From NCBI GenBank assembly GCA_039801885.1, contig JBDRVN010000040.1:1-16222 (forward strand): DNA of 16,222 bases. The letters run 5' to 3'. The notes under the pieces were generated by a model. It was given only the letters and a program-made list of their open reading frames with translations, had not been told where the DNA came from and did not search any database. The translations under genes and the position numbers were made by a program. Origin of the DNA: a candidate division WOR-3 bacterium. Its GTDB lineage: Bacteria; Hydrothermota; Tepidihabitantia; Tepidihabitantales; DTDR01. This document shows, in pieces, positions 884 to 16,221 of the stretch (position 1 is its first letter; every line of letters starts with the position of its first letter).

Positions 884-892
884 ATTTTAATT

Positions 893-965
893 GGGGGTGT
901 AGCTCAGTTGGGAGAGCATCTGCTTTGCAAGCAGAAGGTCGGCGGTTCGAATCCGCTCACCTCCA
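893..965 (+). tRNA. tRNA-Ala (anticodon TGC), CCA not encoded
   Basis: Cloverleaf: acceptor stem GGGGGTG/CACCTCC with the G3:U70 alanine identity pair, D arm GCTC/GAGC, anticodon stem TCTGC/GCAGA with loop TT-TGC-AA (anticodon 926-928), T arm GGCGG-TTCGAAT-CCGCT, discriminator A965 followed by TTTT. Confidence 0.98.
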
Positions 966-968
966 TTT

Positions 969-1811
969 TTACTTTATTATTAAATTGATAATCCGATTCA
1001 AATCTTCCTCAGAATAATATTCAATAATAATTGTTCCGCCTTTTGTCTTTTGTAAAATATTTACCTTTGTGCCTAAGAAATTTTTTAACCTTTCTTCTAA
1101 ATCACTAACGAAGGGGTCTTTCTCTTCTTTTTTTATCTTCTTCTTTTTCTTTATTCCTAAGGAGGAGATTTTTGCTTCTAATTGTCTTACTGATAATCCT
1201 TCTTCTATTATCTTTTCTGCCCAATTTTCTTGGCTTTGCCTATCCGGTAAAGAAAGTAAAATTTTCGCATGACCGACACTAATTAGATTACTTGCTAAAT
1301 AATCTCTTACCTTTGGTGGCAGAGTCAGAAGCCTTAGGGCATTAGTAATTGTTGCCCGTTCTTTGCCTACCTTTTCTGCAACTTTATCATGGGTATAGTT
1401 AAACTCATCAATGAGACTTTTATAACCTAAGGCTTCTTCTATCGGATTTAAATCATCTCGGTGAAGGTTCTCAATTAGTGCCATTTCAATCATTTCCGGT
1501 TCACTCACATTTTTTACAATTACCGGCACCTCATTAAGTCCTACCATTTTAGCAGCCCTTAATCTTCTTTCTCCCATAATCAATTGATAACCTTCTCTTG
1601 TCCGACGGACAACCAAGGGCTGTAAGATTCCTTTTTCTCTTATAGAATTGGCTAATTCCTCTAAACTTTTCTCATCAATCAATTTTCTTGGCTGATAGGG
1701 ATTTGGTTTTATTTCATCAATTTTTAAATAAACTACTTCATTTTCTAATGCCTTTTTTGTATCTTCAGAAATCAGGGCACTAAGCCCTTTACCTAATGCT
1801 TTATGTTTCAT
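969..1811 (-). CDS. parB: Chromosome partitioning protein ParB/Spo0J
   Basis: N-terminal KALGKGLSALI ParA-interacting peptide, PNPYQPRK, CTP-binding GERRLRA, ENLHRDDLNPIEEA, HTH region. Overlaps the parA end and has an AGGAG RBS. Confidence 0.97.
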   Translation of the reverse strand: MKHKALGKGLSALISEDTKKALENEVVYLKIDEIKPNPYQPRKLIDEKSLEELANSIREKGILQPLVVRRTREGYQLIMGERRLRAAKMVGLNEVPVIVKNVSEPEMIEMALIENLHRDDLNPIEEALGYKSLIDEFNYTHDKVAEKVGKERATITNALRLLTLPPKVRDYLASNLISVGHAKILLSLPDRQSQENWAEKIIEEGLSVRQLEAKISSLGIKKKKKIKKEEKDPFVSDLEERLKNFLGTKVNILQKTKGGTIIIEYYSEEDLNRIINLIIK

Positions 1812-2580
1812 TTTTTCTCTCCTGGTGGTTTAAAATTTCACTTGCTAATTGGAGATAAGCCTGAGCACCTAAGGAAGTAATATCATATTGAAAGATTGTC
1901 TTACCAAAACTTGGGGCTTCTGCTAAACGGACACTACGGGGAATTACTGTTTGAAAAACTAAATCTTGAAAGAAATTTCTAAGTTCCTCTTCAACTTGCT
2001 TTGTTAAATTTAATCTTGGTTGATGCATCGTTATTAAAATGCCTTCAATTCTTAAATAGGAATTTAAATTTTTTTTAACTAAATTAATCGTATCTAAAAG
2101 TCGGGAAATTCCTTCTAAGGCATAATATTCCGGTTGAACAGGAATTAAAACGCTATCAGCCGCTGTTAAACCATTGATGGTTAAAATTCCTAAGGAAGGT
2201 GGACAATCAACAATGATAAAAGAATACTCCTCTCTAATTAAAGATAAATTAGTTTTTAGTAGAAATTCTTTCTCTTCAATAAAAGGAAGCTCTACTTCGC
2301 AACCAGCAAGGTCAATATTAGCCGGTAATAAGTCAAGATTTTCAAAGATATTATTGATAATAACTTCTTTAATATTGGCTTTTTTTAATAAAATATCATA
2401 AACAGAAAGTTTTAGATTTTTTTTATCAATCCCTAACCCTAAGGTAGCGTGGGCTTGGGGGTCTAAATCACAAAGTAATATTTTTTCTTTTCTCATTGAT
2501 AAAGCGGCTGATAGATTAATAGCAGTTGTGGTTTTACCAACGCCACCTTTTTGATTGGCAATCGCAATTATTTTCCCCAT
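1801..2580 (-). CDS. parA: Chromosome partitioning ATPase ParA/Soj
   Basis: Deviant Walker A NQKGGVGKTTT, DLDPQ, DCPPSLG, IPRSVRLAEAPSFG. Directly upstream of parB. Confidence 0.97.
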   Translation of the reverse strand: MGKIIAIANQKGGVGKTTTAINLSAALSMRKEKILLCDLDPQAHATLGLGIDKKNLKLSVYDILLKKANIKEVIINNIFENLDLLPANIDLAGCEVELPFIEEKEFLLKTNLSLIREEYSFIIVDCPPSLGILTINGLTAADSVLIPVQPEYYALEGISRLLDTINLVKKNLNSYLRIEGILITMHQPRLNLTKQVEEELRNFFQDLVFQTVIPRSVRLAEAPSFGKTIFQYDITSLGAQAYLQLASEILNHQERKNET

Positions 2581-2590
2581 CGTTAATTTT

Positions 2591-2618
2591 AATATAACGG
2601 AAATTTTAAATAAGTCAA
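2591..2618 (-). promoter_or_regulatory. Putative sigma70-type promoter of parAB (near-leaderless)
   Basis: Minus strand TTGACT (2618-2613), N16, TATATT (2596-2591), 10 nt, ATG. No Shine-Dalgarno. Confidence 0.55.
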
Positions 2619-2720
2619 TAAGAAAAAGAGAGTATAAAGCCAGAAGAAAACTTAATAATAAATATCTTATAAACCTTTATTTACTTTAAAAAACTTATAT
2701 TTAAAATTTATTATGCCCTC

Positions 2721-2948
2721 AATTCTTATCATAATTTATTATATTTTTCTTTGCTATCTTCTTATCAATAATAAAAATTAGTTACTATACTATCTCCTAT
2801 ACTGCTCCCTTTATAATAGAAACTAAAGCCCTCCTGTCTTATTAAAGTAATGCTAAAAAGATATTTAAAAGGATTACTTATTTACCTTTTAAGAGAAGAA
2901 AATACAACTCCTTTAATGCCCCCTTTTTTAATTTCTTTTTTACTATTT
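2721..2948. repeat. Degenerate ~12-bp-periodic tract in the intergenic region
   Basis: Consecutive 12-mers from 2721: aattCTtatcat, aatttattatat, ttttCTttgcta, tcttCTtatcaa, taataaaaatta, gttaCTatacta, tctcCTatactg, ctccCTttataa (6 of 8 share CT in phase). Further 12-spaced pairs: ctaaaaagat/ttaaaaggat (2853/2865) and ctttttta (2923/2935). Confidence 0.35.
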
Positions 2949-2984
2949 CTTTCTTAATCAGTGATTCCATATCCTTTAGTTTTC

Positions 2985-3347
2985 TCATAAGATAATACCA
3001 AAAAGGTCAATCCTTAATTTTTCCATTATCTCTTTATTTAAGCCTTTTGCTTCCCATTTACTTTCAGTAGTCGCAACAAGTTTATAAAGCATAATGCCCG
3101 AATATTTATTAGTAAGCCGCCAGATTTCCTTAACATAAGAGAAATAATATAGATATTGGGTAGGTATTGTTTCCGGATGGGTATCTAAGATTGTCTTTAT
3201 TTTATTATCTAAGGCAGCGAGTTCTTGGTATTTTTTGATAGCATTCTCAATCATCTGCTCCTTTAATTTCTCATATCTTTCTTTAATAATTTCTGGTTCT
3301 AATTTAGCGATATACTTATTAATTCTTTGATAGGCGTTTCTTACCAT
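2985..3347 (-). CDS. 120-aa alpha-helical protein resembling the SIRV2-type (Adnaviria) DNA-wrapping major capsid protein
   Basis: Strong RBS AAGGAGGAG (3359-3351). N-terminal R-x3-QR-x2-K-x2-AK and central Y-x2-[FY]-x3-[IV]-x-R-x2-N-[KR]-x1-2-SG-x2-L patterns match the rudiviral MCP as recalled from memory. The CDS itself is well supported; the family call is a by-eye alignment. Confidence 0.75.
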   Translation of the reverse strand: MVRNAYQRINKYIAKLEPEIIKERYEKLKEQMIENAIKKYQELAALDNKIKTILDTHPETIPTQYLYYFSYVKEIWRLTNKYSGIMLYKLVATTESKWEAKGLNKEIMEKLRIDLFGIIL

Positions 3348-3383
3348 AAACTCCTCCTTTTTGTTTATTTTTCTTCTATATAT

Positions 3384-3411
3384 ATAACGAAAAAGAGGGG
3401 CAAAAGGTTAC
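3384..3411 (-). promoter_or_regulatory. Putative ECF-sigma-type promoter for the 120-aa gene
   Basis: Minus strand GTAACC (3411-3406), N16, CGTTAT (3389-3384). Fits the AAC...CGT architecture of ECF promoters. No good sigma70 match nearby. Confidence 0.5.
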
Positions 3412-3470
3412 TACTTTTTTTAATTCAAATTGCGACAAATTAGGATTCCTTAAAAATATTTTTATTTAAA

Positions 3471-3498
3471 TTGACTTTAAAATAATTTTTAATATAAT
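3471..3498 (+). promoter_or_regulatory. Sigma70-type promoter of rplF (leaderless)
   Basis: TTGACT (3471-3476), N16, TATAAT (3493-3498), 7 nt, ATG at 3506. No SD. Confidence 0.75.
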
Positions 3499-3505
3499 TT
3501 ATACT

Positions 3506-4075
3506 ATGCCAATTGGTAAACGACCAATAACGATACCGGCAAATGCGAAAGTAGAGTTGAAAGATAGCGAGATTTTTGTTTCCGGTCCTTTGGGGCAGTT
3601 GAATATGAAAATTCATCCGCAGGTTGATGTTATTTTGGATAACAATCAGATTATCGTGAAAGAGAAATCTCCTAAAGCAAAAAATTTTCGGGGTTTAATG
3701 TGGGCTTTGATAAATAATATGATAATTGGTGTTACTAAAGGGTTTGAGAAAATATTGGAAGTAAGAGGACAGGGTTATCGAGTACAAAAAACTAAAGAAG
3801 GTATTCAACTTTTTGTAGGCTTTTCCCATCCAGTAAACTTTTCGATACCACAAGGGATTGATGTTGATATAAGGCAGGCGCCCAATCCGGACGATCCAAA
3901 AACACCGTTAATTGAAATTGTTGTTAAAGGAATTGATAAGTATCTGGTGGGTCAAGTAGCGGCCAATATTAGAAGGATTAAACTACCGGATAGTTATAAA
4001 GGAAAAGGGATAAGATATAAAGGTGAAATAATAAAACTAAAACCTGGGAAAAAAGCAGTTTCTACTACTACTTAA
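3506..4075 (+). CDS. rplF: 50S ribosomal protein L6 (uL6), stand-alone
   Basis: IGKRPITIP, VSGPLG, ALINNMIIGVTKGFEKILEVRGQGYR, VGFSHPV, VGQVAANIR, PDSYKGKGIRYKGE, KPGK motifs. Confidence 0.97.
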   Translation: MPIGKRPITIPANAKVELKDSEIFVSGPLGQLNMKIHPQVDVILDNNQIIVKEKSPKAKNFRGLMWALINNMIIGVTKGFEKILEVRGQGYRVQKTKEGIQLFVGFSHPVNFSIPQGIDVDIRQAPNPDDPKTPLIEIVVKGIDKYLVGQVAANIRRIKLPDSYKGKGIRYKGEIIKLKPGKKAVSTTT

Positions 4076-4858: not shown

Positions 4859-6532
4859 TTATTTGATAATTGTAATAAATCCTTTTTTTCTTTCAACAAT
4901 TCCTTCGCTTTCTAATTCAATTAAATAAAGATAAATCCCTGTTACTACTTCTTTTCCTTTCTTATTTTTCATATCCCAAAATCCACTCCTTCTTTCTGGT
5001 TTTATCTCTTGGGGAATTTCTTTTAATTCTCTAACTAAACGACCATCTAAGGTAAAAATTTTTATTTTAAAGGAAGGATATTTATCTTTTAATTTTGTTG
5101 TATCACTTGGTTCATAAGTAATTATTAGATAAGAATAGGAATTCTCTTTAGAAATAAAAGGATTGGGATAGGCATAGACCTTACCTAAAAATAAAGGCTT
5201 TATTTCAATATCACAATAGATTAGGTTATTTAGATATTTAATATTATAAATTTTTACTCCACTGGGAGTTTTGTCATAAAAATTGGTTGTTGGGGTAGTT
5301 AAGTCGCTTACTCCCAATGTATCATTTTGCCAAAAATCATTCGCACTACCTAAATCTTTTAACAAATATCCTTCTTCTCGATCTCCTTGTAAAATTCCCA
5401 CCAGAGGTTCTTTTTCATTATCATTATTACTTTTTTCTTCATTTATATGATAAATTAATAAACCTTCATTAGGTAGTGAGCTATCAAAGCCGACTTTTCT
5501 TCGGTTTTCTAAAAGAAAATATTCGCCTTTTCCCGTTTTATTAAAAAACCAGTCTTTTATAGAATTGGGATTTTCTAAAATTCTTATTCCGTAAGAAGAA
5601 ATAGTAGAAGAGGAGATGGGAAGTTCTTTTACTTCTTTTAGATAATTCTTTTGAATAGAATCCGGTTCTAACCAGCCTAAAAGATATTTACACCAAAGAG
5701 AGAGATGGGTGGGTGAAGAGCCATACGGTTCGTATTCATTTTTCCTTGCCCAACCACCACTCGCCATTAAACAAAAAATTCCTAAACCATAAGTGGAATA
5801 ATCGGTGTCATATAAATCCGGTAATCCTAAAAGATGACCAAATTCGTGAGCAAAAACACCGATTGTGATAAAAGAACCGTTTTTAAACCTTTCCGGTTGA
5901 ATAGTATAAAGATTAATATAAACACCATCATCAGTTAAATAGGGACCTGGTGAGCCAGCATTTTGATCGCTAAGTTCCCATTTGTGGGACCAGATATCAT
6001 TTTTATCTTGGGTTTCTTCAGCACCTGGTCCGCTATGGACAATTATTAAATTGTCAACATAACCGTCGTTATCTTCGTCGTATTCTCGAAAATTAATATA
6101 AGAATCGCAGATTTTTATTAAATCGATTACTAAGCCTTGGGAGTTATGGGGATAATTTCCGTAAATTCCGTAATTAGAATCAACATAATAATGATAATTG
6201 TTGTTTAAATGAAACCACCCAAAAACCTCACCGGTGATAATTAAATTTCCATAAGAAACTTCATAATAATAATCTTTTAAAGAATTATTATTTTCCTTAA
6301 AAAAAAGACGATAAAAATTTTCTTTTTCGTAACGATAAGATTGATCAGGGAAATCGACCAAAAGGATGATTAATTTTTTTATTCCGGTTGTTTTTTTAAC
6401 AATTGTTGGTTTTTCAATCTGATAGGGAAATTTTATTTTTACTTTTGGCTCAATCCTTTTTTCATATAAGAATAGGGGAGGCATTGAAAATAGAAAATTA
6501 AATAGAAAGAAAAAAAGAGGAAAACGGGACAA
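4859..6532 (-). CDS. Secreted M6-family (immune inhibitor A-like) zinc metalloprotease with C-terminal Ig/T9SS-like sorting domain
   Basis: TTG start with hydrophobic signal peptide. LLVDFPD, DYYYEVSYG, IWSHKW, HEFGHLLGLPDLYD, CLMASGGW, EYFLLENR, GLLIYHI. Tail YPNPF...KIFTLDGRLVREL...WD...GIY...ITIIK. Confidence 0.9.
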   Translation of the reverse strand: MSRFPLFFFLFNFLFSMPPLFLYEKRIEPKVKIKFPYQIEKPTIVKKTTGIKKLIILLVDFPDQSYRYEKENFYRLFFKENNNSLKDYYYEVSYGNLIITGEVFGWFHLNNNYHYYVDSNYGIYGNYPHNSQGLVIDLIKICDSYINFREYDEDNDGYVDNLIIVHSGPGAEETQDKNDIWSHKWELSDQNAGSPGPYLTDDGVYINLYTIQPERFKNGSFITIGVFAHEFGHLLGLPDLYDTDYSTYGLGIFCLMASGGWARKNEYEPYGSSPTHLSLWCKYLLGWLEPDSIQKNYLKEVKELPISSSTISSYGIRILENPNSIKDWFFNKTGKGEYFLLENRRKVGFDSSLPNEGLLIYHINEEKSNNDNEKEPLVGILQGDREEGYLLKDLGSANDFWQNDTLGVSDLTTPTTNFYDKTPSGVKIYNIKYLNNLIYCDIEIKPLFLGKVYAYPNPFISKENSYSYLIITYEPSDTTKLKDKYPSFKIKIFTLDGRLVRELKEIPQEIKPERRSGFWDMKNKKGKEVVTGIYLYLIELESEGIVERKKGFITIIK

Positions 6533-8427: not shown

Positions 8428-10077
8428 TTATTTAATAATTACCAATTTTTTAATTTTTTTATTTTCTTTAATAAAATATATTCCTTTTTTTAGATTTCCT
8501 TTTTTTACTTCTTGACCACTGGTATTAAAAATTTTGTTTCCGTAAATTTTTTTTACTTTTATTTTATATTTATAGTTTTCAGAATCTTTAATACTGCTGG
8601 CGATGCCAATGGCAAAGGGACGGTTAGTTAATGCCGAAACAGTATCGGTGGAAGTAATTAAAGTAAATTTTAAATAGCAGTTATTACTTATAAGATTAGG
8701 GATTCGCCATTGATAAAAGCCGGTATTAGGAAAAGAGTCGACAACAGTGGTAAATGGTCCGTTAGGTCCGTTTTGGGAAAATTCAATCTTCACAAAAGAA
8801 GGGTTTTGGGGATGATTGGGTACAGATGAGAGCCATTTGATAAAATTGACTGAGTTAGGTTGAAATCTTTCATAACCTTTAGGAAAAACTGGAAAGATAT
8901 TTAAATTTTCTGGTATTGATGTCTCTTTAAAAAATCTTGCCCGATTTCGGTCATTGGGCCAAGTTCCCTCTCTTGCTACTAAAATTATATCCGGATAGCC
9001 ATTATGGTCACAATCACCACCAACTTTTAATTCTTGTCCGGTTCCCGGAGAGGGAGTATTAATCGTTACTGTTTCCTGCCAATTGCCTCTACCATTACCT
9101 AAATATATTTTCAAAACTCCATTACCTTGGGCAACAACATCAATAAATCCATCGAGATTCATATCAAAAAGTTGGATTCTCTGATAAGAACCAGTAGAGG
9201 GTAAATTACCAGAGAAATTCTCCCAACTATCTCCTTCTTCATTAAAAATCCAAACTTCAATACCACCTTGCGGATTAATGAATCCTAAATCCATACCACC
9301 ATCATTATCCAAATCGTTTAAAGCAACGCTATAATAATAGTAATTACCAGGAGAGGGTAAATTTCGGTGGGCTAAAATAAAATTACCTGTTCCATCACCA
9401 AAATAAACACTACCAAATTGATGAGCAACCGCAAAATCTATATTACCATCTTTATTAATATCACCAAAGACAAAATCCATATTGGAATTGCCACCGATAA
9501 AACCAAAACTCCTTCGCCAAGTTCCATTACCCAAATTTAAATAAATATGAATTCCGTCATCGGCACCAAAAGAATTAGCACCGATATCTAAAAGCCCATC
9601 ATTATTAATATCGGCAAAATCGGTAGAGAACATTCCCCAATCTTGACCATTGGTTGCTAAACTATCATCCCAAGGAAGCCAGTTTCTGCCGGTTCCGTCA
9701 CCTAAGGCAACTTCCATTAATTGGTCACCAAAATCATTTCCTGAATAATTGTGATGCATTCCGTAACCAACGTCTAAAAAACCGTCATTATTGACATCGC
9801 CATAGGCAATTCCTCCGTAACCAAAATCACCATTCATATAAACCTGCCAATTCCCTCGACCATCACCAAACCAAACCATAATGCCATGTTGGTCAGTGTT
9901 GATATAAGGAGAGCCGTGATCACCTATTGAGATTAAATCTAAATTGCCATCACAATTAATGTCAACCATTTCTATTTCCAATCTACCACCTTCCAAATTT
10001 GGAGGAATTAAACCATTGGAAGATTCTTGGTATTCTAAATTAAAAAGCAAATTAAAAATTATTAAGAATATCTTCAT
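8428..10077 (-). CDS. Secreted FG-GAP/VCBS repeat beta-propeller protein with short T9SS-like C-terminal tail
   Basis: Signal-like N terminus, about 7 DxNxDGxxD repeats paired with GDGxGNW/F motifs, an Ig-like domain (PKGYERF...IKW...PNTGFYQWRIP), tail KIFNTSGQEV...LKKGIYF...KKLVIIK. Confidence 0.88.
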   Translation of the reverse strand: MKIFLIIFNLLFNLEYQESSNGLIPPNLEGGRLEIEMVDINCDGNLDLISIGDHGSPYINTDQHGIMVWFGDGRGNWQVYMNGDFGYGGIAYGDVNNDGFLDVGYGMHHNYSGNDFGDQLMEVALGDGTGRNWLPWDDSLATNGQDWGMFSTDFADINNDGLLDIGANSFGADDGIHIYLNLGNGTWRRSFGFIGGNSNMDFVFGDINKDGNIDFAVAHQFGSVYFGDGTGNFILAHRNLPSPGNYYYYSVALNDLDNDGGMDLGFINPQGGIEVWIFNEEGDSWENFSGNLPSTGSYQRIQLFDMNLDGFIDVVAQGNGVLKIYLGNGRGNWQETVTINTPSPGTGQELKVGGDCDHNGYPDIILVAREGTWPNDRNRARFFKETSIPENLNIFPVFPKGYERFQPNSVNFIKWLSSVPNHPQNPSFVKIEFSQNGPNGPFTTVVDSFPNTGFYQWRIPNLISNNCYLKFTLITSTDTVSALTNRPFAIGIASSIKDSENYKYKIKVKKIYGNKIFNTSGQEVKKGNLKKGIYFIKENKKIKKLVIIK

Positions 10078-15249: not shown

Positions 15250-16221
15250 TTATTTCAAAATTAAGATTTTTTTAATACCTTTTTCGGTTTCTTTAAAGTA
15301 GATGCCTTTTTTTAGTTTCTTTTCCTTTACAAGTTTGCCAGAAATATCATAGATTTTCTTTTTTGTTAGTTTCTTTTCGCTCTTATTTTCTTTCTCTTCA
15401 CTAATGCTTGGTGTTTCTTGAATATACTTGATTGTCGCATAGTCATAATCAGTGCCAGAACCCCAACTATGACCAGTAACATAGACATTGCTCTGATTAT
15501 CAACAAAAAGGGAGGTAGCCCCATCATAATCATTTCCTGGACCATTATATCTTCTCTCCCATAACAGGTTACCATTCGCATTATACTTCAAAGTAGTATA
15601 ATCAAAATTTGTGAGGGAGTCATAACTACCACCAGTAACATAGACATTGCCATTCATATCAACAAAAAGAGAGGTAGCCCAATCATCACTATTTCCTGGA
15701 CCATTATATCTTCTCTCCCATAACAGGTTACCATTCGCATCATACTTCAAAGTCGCATAGTCATAATCAGTGCCAGAACCTTCACTTCTACCAGTAACAT
15801 AGACATTGCCCTGATTATCAACAAAAAGGGAAGTAGCCCCATCATTATAATTTCCCTGTCCATTATATCTTCTCTCCCATAATAAGTTGCCACTCGCATC
15901 ATACTTCAAAGTAGTATAATCAAAATTTGTGAGGGAGTCATAACTACCACCAGTAACATAGACATTGCCCTGATTATCAACAAAAAGAGATTTAGCCCCA
16001 TCATAATCATTTCCTGGACCATTATACCTTCTTTCCCATAATAAGTTGCCCTGCCTATCATACTTCAAGGTCGCATAATCATAATCAGTAACAGAGTCAT
16101 AACTATAACCAGTAACATAGACATTGCTCTGATTATCAACAAAAAGGGAGGTAGCCCCATCATAATCATTTCCTGGACCATTATATCTTCTCTCCCATAA
16201 CAGGTTACCATTTCCATCATA
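15250..16221 (-). CDS. SBBP-type beta-propeller repeat protein with short T9SS-like tail, 5'-truncated by the window edge
   Basis: Frame is open to the window end. 53-aa repeats (KYDxxGNLLWERRYNGxGN...A.SLFVDxxGNVYVTG.S...DY.T). Tail KIYDISGKLV...LKKGIYF...KKILILK. Confidence 0.9.
   Translation of the reverse strand, partial: YDGNGNLLWERRYNGPGNDYDGATSLFVDNQSNVYVTGYSYDSVTDYDYATLKYDRQGNLLWERRYNGPGNDYDGAKSLFVDNQGNVYVTGGSYDSLTNFDYTTLKYDASGNLLWERRYNGQGNYNDGATSLFVDNQGNVYVTGRSEGSGTDYDYATLKYDANGNLLWERRYNGPGNSDDWATSLFVDMNGNVYVTGGSYDSLTNFDYTTLKYNANGNLLWERRYNGPGNDYDGATSLFVDNQSNVYVTGHSWGSGTDYDYATIKYIQETPSISEEKENKSEKKLTKKKIYDISGKLVKEKKLKKGIYFKETEKGIKKILILK

Follow-up and report, generated by a model that had tools for sequence, protein, structure and literature searches.

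We analysed a 16,222-bp stretch of DNA (the window; contig JBDRVN010000040.1, assembly GCA_039801885.1) from a candidate division WOR-3 bacterium, in which a small gene, gene A, lies on the minus strand between parA and rplF. Profile comparisons and a predicted structure indicate that its 120-amino-acid (aa) product, P0001, is a remote homolog of the SIRV2-type major capsid protein (MCP) of Adnaviria, and that the two align colinearly all the way from the N-terminal arm through the helical bundle. An earlier note on this DNA had described here an open reading frame (ORF) with a strong ribosome-binding site and a helical-looking product. Both descriptions hold: GGAGGAG stands 3 nt before the ATG, and the AlphaFold2 model is all-helical. 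Gene A is followed directly by the remnant of a second gene, gene B, and the unit consists of the following features.

2985..3347, minus strand: gene A, an ATG-start ORF of 120 aa, isoelectric point (pI) 9.26, predicted to be all-helical and, by profile comparison, capsid-homologous
Residues ~1-40 of P0001: predicted N-terminal arm
Residues ~40-116 of P0001: predicted C-terminal helical bundle
3351-3357 in plus-strand numbering, minus strand: Shine-Dalgarno sequence GGAGGAG, 3 nt upstream of the gene A ATG, read from the sequence
2878-2988, minus strand: gene B remnant of 36 codons, whose ATG overlaps the TGA of gene A (ATGA) and which has lost ~195 nt in frame compared with a related locus, L001 (see below)

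A phmmer search with P0001 over 1.84 billion representative proteins gave 201 matches at E <=1e-3, including 12 at <=1e-10, and most of them are ~120 aa long. The family thus comprises at least 201 clusters at 50% identity. Two matches, P0091 (865 aa) and P0157 (673 aa, with a nematode chemoreceptor domain), look spurious and were ignored. Eight close homologs share 74-98% identity with P0001; all come from metagenome-assembled genomes (MAGs), four of which are named candidate division WOR-3. The main family alignment, A2, has 110 rows: P0001, four of the eight close homologs and 105 of the best 150 of the 201 matches, 38 sequences longer than 165 aa and 7 partial ones having been dropped. We also used a nine-row WOR-3 profile (A1), the 20 nearest sequences (A3), the narrow WOR-3 clade (A4, 9 rows), four short metagenomic proteins that exceed the Pfam cut-off for PF12193 (A5: P0065, P0085, P0140 and P0159) and five annotated rudivirus capsid proteins (A6).

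When 177,635 sequences of the PDB were searched with the A2 profile, 12 were found at E <=10, and the best eight were all Adnaviria capsid proteins. The highest-scoring was SSRV1 6wq0 (E 1.9e-9), in which query positions 8-121 align with chain positions 8-127, colinear over ~114 residues. It was followed by SIRV2 3j9x (5.1e-8), SFV1 6d5f (3.3e-6), 3f2e (0.0027) and AFV1 chains (0.007-0.1). The A3 profile, used as a check against profile drift, also placed five Adnaviria chains on top (E 0.007-0.2). By these profiles, the similarity to structurally solved capsid proteins is significant and colinear. The alignment to the SIRV2 protein that the earlier note had made by eye is borne out as well, as all five of its blocks are in register with the HMMER alignment of the family profile to 3j9x_A.

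Intermediate sequences connect P0001 itself to the rudivirus proteins. P0001 reaches P0033 (2.2e-9), P0065 (3.1e-7), P0085, P0140 and P0159 by phmmer, and all five score above the Pfam cut-off for the rudivirus coat family PF12193 (Sulf_coat_C), which 20 of the 110 A2 members match at E <=0.01. Comparison of A4 with A5 by hhalign gave 99.5% (E 7.6e-23, 118 columns), and A5 in turn found 6wq0 (4.4e-12) and 3j9x (9.3e-10) in the PDB. In tblastn, P0065 matched capsid genes annotated in rudiviruses of Stygiolobus, Metallosphaera and Sulfolobus, at 3e-6 to 4e-4. Against A6, hhalign gave 96.7% (E 4e-10) for the 110 rows of A2 and 91.5% (E 8.6e-7) for the 20 rows of A3. A protein search with the A2 profile led to 15 proteins.

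P0001 gave no match in NCBIfam and no usable match in the ESM Atlas; its best PHROGs match (E 0.0034) was a family of unknown function. In tblastn it found nothing in 50,697 phage and virus records or in 72,556 plasmids, and P0033 likewise found no match in phages. The Pfam family DUF5740 (PF19011) was considered and rejected: P0001 scores 22.3 bits, below the cut-off of 26.5 (E 1.6e-4, 84 of 94 profile positions), and only two of the 110 A2 relatives match it. No mention of DUF5740 was found in the literature.

The predicted fold points in the same direction as the profiles. An AlphaFold2 model of P0001, built from the A2 alignment with no templates, had a predicted local distance difference test score (pLDDT) of 94.6 and a predicted template-modelling score (pTM) of 0.76, with helices at residues 5-15, 18-55, 62-81, 84-100 and 105-116. 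In the model, an extended N-terminal helical arm precedes a C-terminal four-helix bundle. Adnaviria capsid proteins took eight of the top ten places (ranks 1-4, 6-8 and 10) when the model was compared with the PDB by Foldseek. The best were 3j9x (E 4.4e-3, probability 1.00, TM 0.67/0.64) and 6wq0 (E 8.1e-3, probability 1.00), the TM range of these two being 0.63-0.68; 3f2e had a TMt of 0.79 and a root-mean-square deviation of 1.6 Å. Sequence identity in these alignments is ~16-20%, and unrelated matches had probabilities of <=0.28. In BFVD, the SIRV coat protein was at rank 1 (probability 1.00), the SBFV2 capsid protein at rank 3 and the SSRV1 coat protein at rank 4. The earlier note had named P0001 a homolog of the SIRV2-type capsid protein and had proposed profile and AlphaFold/Foldseek comparisons with solved MCP structures; both comparisons put Adnaviria capsid proteins on top, and together with the phmmer link from P0001 to proteins that pass the PF12193 cut-off they uphold the claim. 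A two-copy complex prediction of P0001 from A2 scored 0.00, was run without controls, and is used here neither for nor against dimerisation.

The conserved residues of the family are found in both the arm and the bundle. R8, Y68 and W98 are nearly invariant over the 110 rows of A2. In the 20 rows of A3, Y12, G84, W98 and F116 are invariant and R8, K15, P18, K51, Y68, K97 and L103 nearly so. In the HMMER alignment, the arm residues R8, K11, Y12, K15 and P18 are in register with R, K, W, K and P in the SIRV2 and SSRV1 proteins, whose N-terminal arm reportedly contacts DNA in the solved virions. P0001 has 21 lysine and arginine against 16 aspartate and glutamate residues, and residues 1-40 have a pI of 9.57. 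The family is basic in general, with a median pI of 9.43 and a pI above 8 in 98 of the 110 A2 members. Taken from the sequence, DNA binding by P0001 is plausible.

A scan of 185,579 species genomes with the A4 profile, which reaches nearer relatives only, identified 11 further loci (L001-L011), ten of them in MAGs titled bacterium or uncultured bacterium. The remaining one, L001 (JAWAJM010000123.1, 2792 bp), is 85% identical to the window in DNA over the capsid-like module and lies in a MAG named Aenigmatarchaeota. This assignment is probably a binning error; otherwise it would be a sign of module movement. The guanine-plus-cytosine (GC) content of the 11 loci ranges from 0.28 to 0.69, and the composition of the gene matches that of its host across this range. 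For the GC-rich MAG with three copies, eight of 120 listed GuaA relatives carry phylum-level names, and seven of these eight are WOR-3 (65-73% identity). The neighbours are ordinary and vary between loci (66 ORFs scanned). L002, for example, has polA and a nucleotidyl transferase at one flank of the gene and purH and clpB at the opposite flank; L003 has ddl and glycosyltransferases nearby, L005 has priA and tamB, and L009 has leuS and guaA. No PHROG match was found for 27 of the 29 unknown neighbour ORFs. The ratio of nonsynonymous to synonymous substitution rates (dN/dS) was 0.219 between the window and L001, 0.173 between the window and L005 (partial) and 0.046 between L003 and L004. Gene A is a genuine gene, kept by purifying selection in the chromosome of a WOR-3 bacterium.

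Gene A seems to have had a partner. We ran the A2 profile over 1,336 six-frame ORFs from the window and the 11 loci, and found in L001 and L002 a second, divergent paralog of ~104 aa, gene B, directly after gene A (E 5.5e-8 and 8.3e-7); in L002 the two genes overlap by 4 nt. In blastn, L001 2014-2510 and 2706-2792 match window 3442-2974 and 2985-2899, respectively. These arrangements indicate that the ancestral unit is a translationally coupled pair of paralogs, A and B. Arrays occur elsewhere: L007 has two family copies in tandem, and four consecutive ORFs in L008 (496-2937, plus strand) match the profile, three clearly and one weakly. The first ORF of L008 encodes a fused form of 450 aa, with a capsid-like domain at 64-156 and a C-terminal part that holds no known domain. 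The other ORFs of this 4.9-kb contig are unknown, except for one Bflower domain protein.

Copies of the gene also recur within genomes. L003 1-465 and L004 65-529, from one MAG, are 98% identical over 465 nt, and L009 10029-10240 and L011 1-212, from the MAG that also holds L007, are 93% identical over 212 nt; both pairs are at contig ends. P0006 and P0007 share the locus-tag prefix N2323, a sign that one WOR-3 MAG holds two copies. In four of the 11 loci the gene is cut by the contig end or lies less than 500 nt from it, which suggests that repeats break the assemblies. The family itself behaves as a repeat that breaks short-read assemblies. Homology among the window, L001 and L005 is limited to ~680 bp (2765-3442), and the flanks differ beyond it; judged from these alignments, the limit could be explained by paralogous loci or by mobility of a small module. 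The earlier note had called the protein stand-alone. No viral genes lie nearby, but the term needs qualifying because the ancestral unit appears to be a coupled pair, of which a 36-codon remnant of B still follows gene A, and because there are several copies per genome, often at contig ends.

Long members of the family add further domains. Among 35 long matches scanned, the N-terminal capsid-like domain is followed by a lectin-type C-terminal domain, Laminin_G_3, in six and by Lcl_C in one; P0033 joins two capsid domains in tandem, and some fused forms have a proline-rich linker. No signal peptide was found in any fused form inspected. A homolog of the MCP in archaeal adnaviruses is described, in the accessible part of its source, as an N-terminal MCP-like domain with a C-terminal jelly-roll domain (PMC13700489). 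The fused members may therefore be viral, as they have the same architecture, so far as it is given there. Fused or multiple capsid genes are likewise described for archaeal rod-shaped viruses in the available text of a preprint (10.1101/2025.08.23.671958).

A tree of 121 rows and 124 columns was made with IQ-TREE. The five rudivirus proteins group together (support 99), set off by a long branch, and join P0085 and P0140 (support 97), within a group of 12 rows that consists of the rudivirus proteins and relatives including all four A5 proteins. All 11 bacterial-genome-linked rows, namely five proteins of the WOR-3 clade (support 99) and six MAG loci, fall into a separate group of 64 rows (support 86). 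In this alignment-based tree, bacterial-genome-linked members cluster together, apart from the rudivirus capsid proteins. The tree does not tell whether transfer ran from virus to cell or the other way round.

The surroundings of gene A in the window contain the following features.

892-966, plus strand: tRNA-Ala (TGC), between gatB and parB, 2 kb from gene A, the sole RNA gene found
969-1811, minus strand: parB, downstream of gene A
1801-2580, minus strand: parA, downstream of gene A
2581..2877: AT-rich non-coding spacer from the gene A/B module to parA, with 2765-2884 conserved in L005
3358..3505: divergent intergenic region between gene A and rplF, with promoter-like sites for both genes, conserved with L001 as far as 3442 (blastn)
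3506-4075, plus strand: rplF, divergent from gene A

The promoter-like sites were identified by consensus matching only. The plus-strand site 3471-3498, on the rplF side, matches at 11/12, and the minus-strand sites 3520-3491 and 3512-3485 match at 9/12 each; a site for parA at 2618-2591 matches at 10/12. L005 is 73% identical to the spacer over 123 nt. The spacer has no match to any Rfam family, and an RNA gene in it was rejected, because Rfam gives only the tRNA-Ala (at 893-965 in that search) in the window. The rplF gene (ribosomal protein L6, 189 aa) is solitary between gene A and an SDR gene, outside any ribosomal protein operon.

The 13 larger ORFs of the window were assigned by Pfam to gatB, parB, parA, rplF, SDR, M6 peptidase, response regulator, histidine kinase, FG-GAP, H+-PPase, nrdD, nrdR and SBBP repeat protein. 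The earlier note had seen no integrase, replication, packaging or other viral genes and no att repeats in the window, and the searches agree with it: Pfam finds no domain of viral, integrase, replication-initiator or packaging type in any of the 13 ORFs, and a search of the window for att-like or terminal repeats found only short AT-rich chance matches. No repeat copy of the tRNA-Ala 3' end was found near gene A. The GC content of gene A is 0.306 and that of the window 0.327. A provirus at this locus was rejected because of the flanks, repeats, composition and PHROGs results, and the housekeeping flanks in the window and in L002 likewise bear out the bacterial chromosomal setting that the earlier note had read. 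A defence island at gene A was rejected after a PADLOC scan, in which P0001 had no match and 18 of the 20 proteins scanned had none; two distant neighbours in L007 were weak partial matches. As a separate observation, three large minus-strand genes for secreted-type proteins in the window, M6 peptidase (4859-6532), FG-GAP (8428-10077) and SBBP beta-propeller (15250-16221), encode similar lysine-rich tails of ~20 residues. The tails look like a C-terminal sorting signal, and one peptidase in L002 weakly matches Por_Secre_tail.

How could a capsid-like protein act in a bacterium? We propose that the chromosomal capsid homolog dimerises and wraps dsDNA as a nucleoid-associated or protective coat, a proposal that is the likeliest of the roles considered, yet one that we regard as evenly poised between right and wrong. 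The earlier note had offered a domesticated protein acting as a chromatin-like or stress-protective DNA coat, or part of a minimal filamentous gene-transfer particle, and these roles are kept here as hypotheses. P0001 would be expressed from a promoter of its own with the help of the strong ribosome-binding site, and would pair through its C-terminal bundle, like rudivirus capsid proteins. The basic N-terminal arm would be laid along dsDNA, and cooperative binding would leave a stretch of DNA coated with protein and possibly in A-form. The effect in the cell would be a nucleoid-associated or protective coat, comparable to the small acid-soluble proteins (SASPs) of spores. Ancestrally, P0001 may have acted with its translationally coupled paralog B as a heterodimer, as in most adnaviruses. 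Since B has been reduced to 36 codons in this genome, A would form a homodimer on its own, as rudivirus capsid proteins do. The wider claim, that an old, chromosomally inherited WOR-3 family of Adnaviria-type capsid proteins coats cellular or incoming dsDNA, is more doubtful, and we advance it tentatively.

Several results weigh against the proposed DNA coat. P0001 does not match PF12193 at E <=10 (curated cut-off 25.2 bits) and by its own score falls outside that family; it found no match in the PDB by phmmer, and BLASTP gave no alignment with the capsid protein of Metallosphaera rod-shaped virus 1 (MRV1). No capsid protein was found in the PDB with the A1 profile, and hhalign of the nine rows of A4 against A6 gave 4.9% (E 0.0082). 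Because comparisons with P0001 alone and with the narrowest profiles fail, the homology is to be called real but remote, and dependent on intermediate sequences. Even the best Foldseek E-value is modest (4e-3), which is common among small helical proteins. The tree was built quickly, with support by the Shimodaira-Hasegawa-like approximate likelihood ratio test (SH-aLRT) only, a midpoint root and long branches flagged, and every sequence comes from a MAG. The reduction of gene B to a remnant in the window could mean that the module is decaying. Moreover, multiple copies per genome, near-identical copies at contig ends and the change of context from locus to locus fit a mobile or viral element.

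These last points are the basis of the main alternative explanation, in which the gene is still part of an adnavirus-like virus or other mobile element of WOR-3 that has yet to be discovered, or was recently left behind by one. P0001 would then be the coat of a virion, and the chromosomal copies would be orphan, satellite or decaying ones. The tandem arrays of L007 and L008 resemble the capsid gene pairs found in most adnaviruses and in the rudivirus MRV1, the short contig L006 carries only unknown ORFs and the likewise short L008 nearly so, and gene B is broken in the window. The occurrence of L001 in an archaeal-binned MAG, and flanks of the window, L001 and L005 that differ outside the ~680-bp module, would also fit such an element. 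However, housekeeping genes begin ~100-400 bp away to either side of the gene, in the window as in L002, too close for a viral genome to fit between them. No integrase, terminal repeats, att sites or viral hallmark domains were found in the neighbourhoods searched, the unknown neighbours hardly ever match PHROGs, and tblastn with P0001 was empty in phage, virus and plasmid records. Host-like GC at 28-69% and purifying selection also speak against such an element. We consider this explanation possible but on the unlikely side.

Another possibility, which we judge unlikely, is that the fold has been reused for a role other than coating DNA, for example in a filament made of protein alone, in a scaffold, or in a small protein with a regulatory or adaptor function. 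DNA wrapping in the viruses would in that case be a specialisation of its own. No DNA-related neighbour is conserved in the varying neighbourhoods, P0001 is only mildly basic, and helical bundles are versatile; the relatives fused to lectin-like domains (Laminin_G_3 in 6 of 35, Lcl_C in 1 of 35) are unlikely to act on the nucleoid. The fused forms, though, may be viral and so say little about the bacterial proteins, and the family has kept the N-terminal arm, with its conserved residues in register with the viral ones and a pI above 8 in most members. It is very improbable that the likeness is chance or convergence of small helical proteins that share no ancestry with Adnaviria capsid proteins, because, despite the low identity, the missing direct pairwise match, the empty narrowest profiles and Foldseek E-values of 4e-3 to ~1, several independent comparisons reach significance with colinearity along the whole protein, Adnaviria capsid proteins alone top both the sequence and the fold searches, and intermediates bridge the gap in steps of E <=1e-6.

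In the accessible text of papers from 2022-2026, this capsid protein is called unique to the filamentous viruses of archaea, or exclusive to them, and Adnaviria is said to have no link to bacterial viruses (PMC9246712, PMC10848233, PMC13700489). In a 2025 preprint, as far as its available part goes, the capsid tree was rooted with an unrelated three-helix domain from a fold search (10.1101/2025.08.23.671958). No report of bacterial homologs of this capsid protein was found in the literature outside subscription journals and preprint supplements. Bacterial homologs at the sequence level would give real relatives outside the known viruses for rooting the capsid tree. The origin of Adnaviria would become testable as the capture of a cellular protein, the domestication of a viral protein or a wider host range. 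Such homologs would also be candidates for a new class of bacterial DNA-coating protein. If an inherited WOR-3 family of DNA-coating proteins does exist, it would be the first cellular counterpart of a realm-defining capsid protein, and would represent either the cellular stock from which the coat of archaeal filamentous viruses came or evidence of adnavirus-like elements in Bacteria too.

Among cellular proteins, the proposed coating of dsDNA has a functional analogy in the alpha/beta-type SASPs and other nucleoid-associated proteins. SASPs are small, abundant proteins that coat dsDNA, shift it toward an A-like form and protect it. The analogy does not extend to sequence or fold, and P0001 has no Pfam or NCBIfam match to SASPs or nucleoid-associated proteins. 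Among viral proteins, the jelly-roll MCP homolog of archaeal adnaviruses has the same layout as the long family members, whereas P0001 has no such extension.

The MCP1 and MCP2 of enveloped filamentous archaeal viruses (AFV1, 5W7G/3FBZ/3FBL; SFV1, 6D5F; PF21660/PF25647) are paired, diverged paralogs, like A and B in L001 and L002 and the arrays of L007 and L008. Most adnaviruses have such heterodimer-type paired capsid proteins, whereas rudiviruses have a homodimer. Matches to MCP1 and MCP2 in sequence and fold are weaker than those to the rudivirus proteins but consistent. Unlike in these viruses, no envelope or other viral genes were found in the window, and the partner B has only 36 codons.

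As far as the flanks in the window and in L002 show, gene A lies outside the realm Adnaviria, membership of which means a linear dsDNA virus genome with other adnavirus genes. The MCP genes of rudiviruses (SIRV2, 3J9X; SSRV1, 6WQ0; C-terminal domain of SIRV-YNP, 3F2E; PF12193) are carried by linear genomes of archaeal viruses, whereas gene A is part of a bacterial chromosome and has no adjacent glycosyltransferase or other rudivirus genes. In the rudivirus proteins, the first arm helix is followed by four inserted residues that P0001 lacks, and identity is ~16-20%; DNA wrapping is established for their virions and is proposed for P0001. Rudiviruses are usually described with one capsid gene. 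In MRV1 (MN876843.1 4083-4895), a 108-aa 'putative coat protein' is annotated directly upstream of the 134-aa major capsid protein. The rudivirus MCPs are nevertheless alike to P0001 in length (134 versus 120 aa), and both would be the product of a single gene of the homodimer-forming type, the dimer of P0001 being predicted only. The order of their helices is colinear with that of P0001, an N-terminal arm and then a helical bundle, and the arm residues (R, K, an aromatic residue, K and P) are in register.

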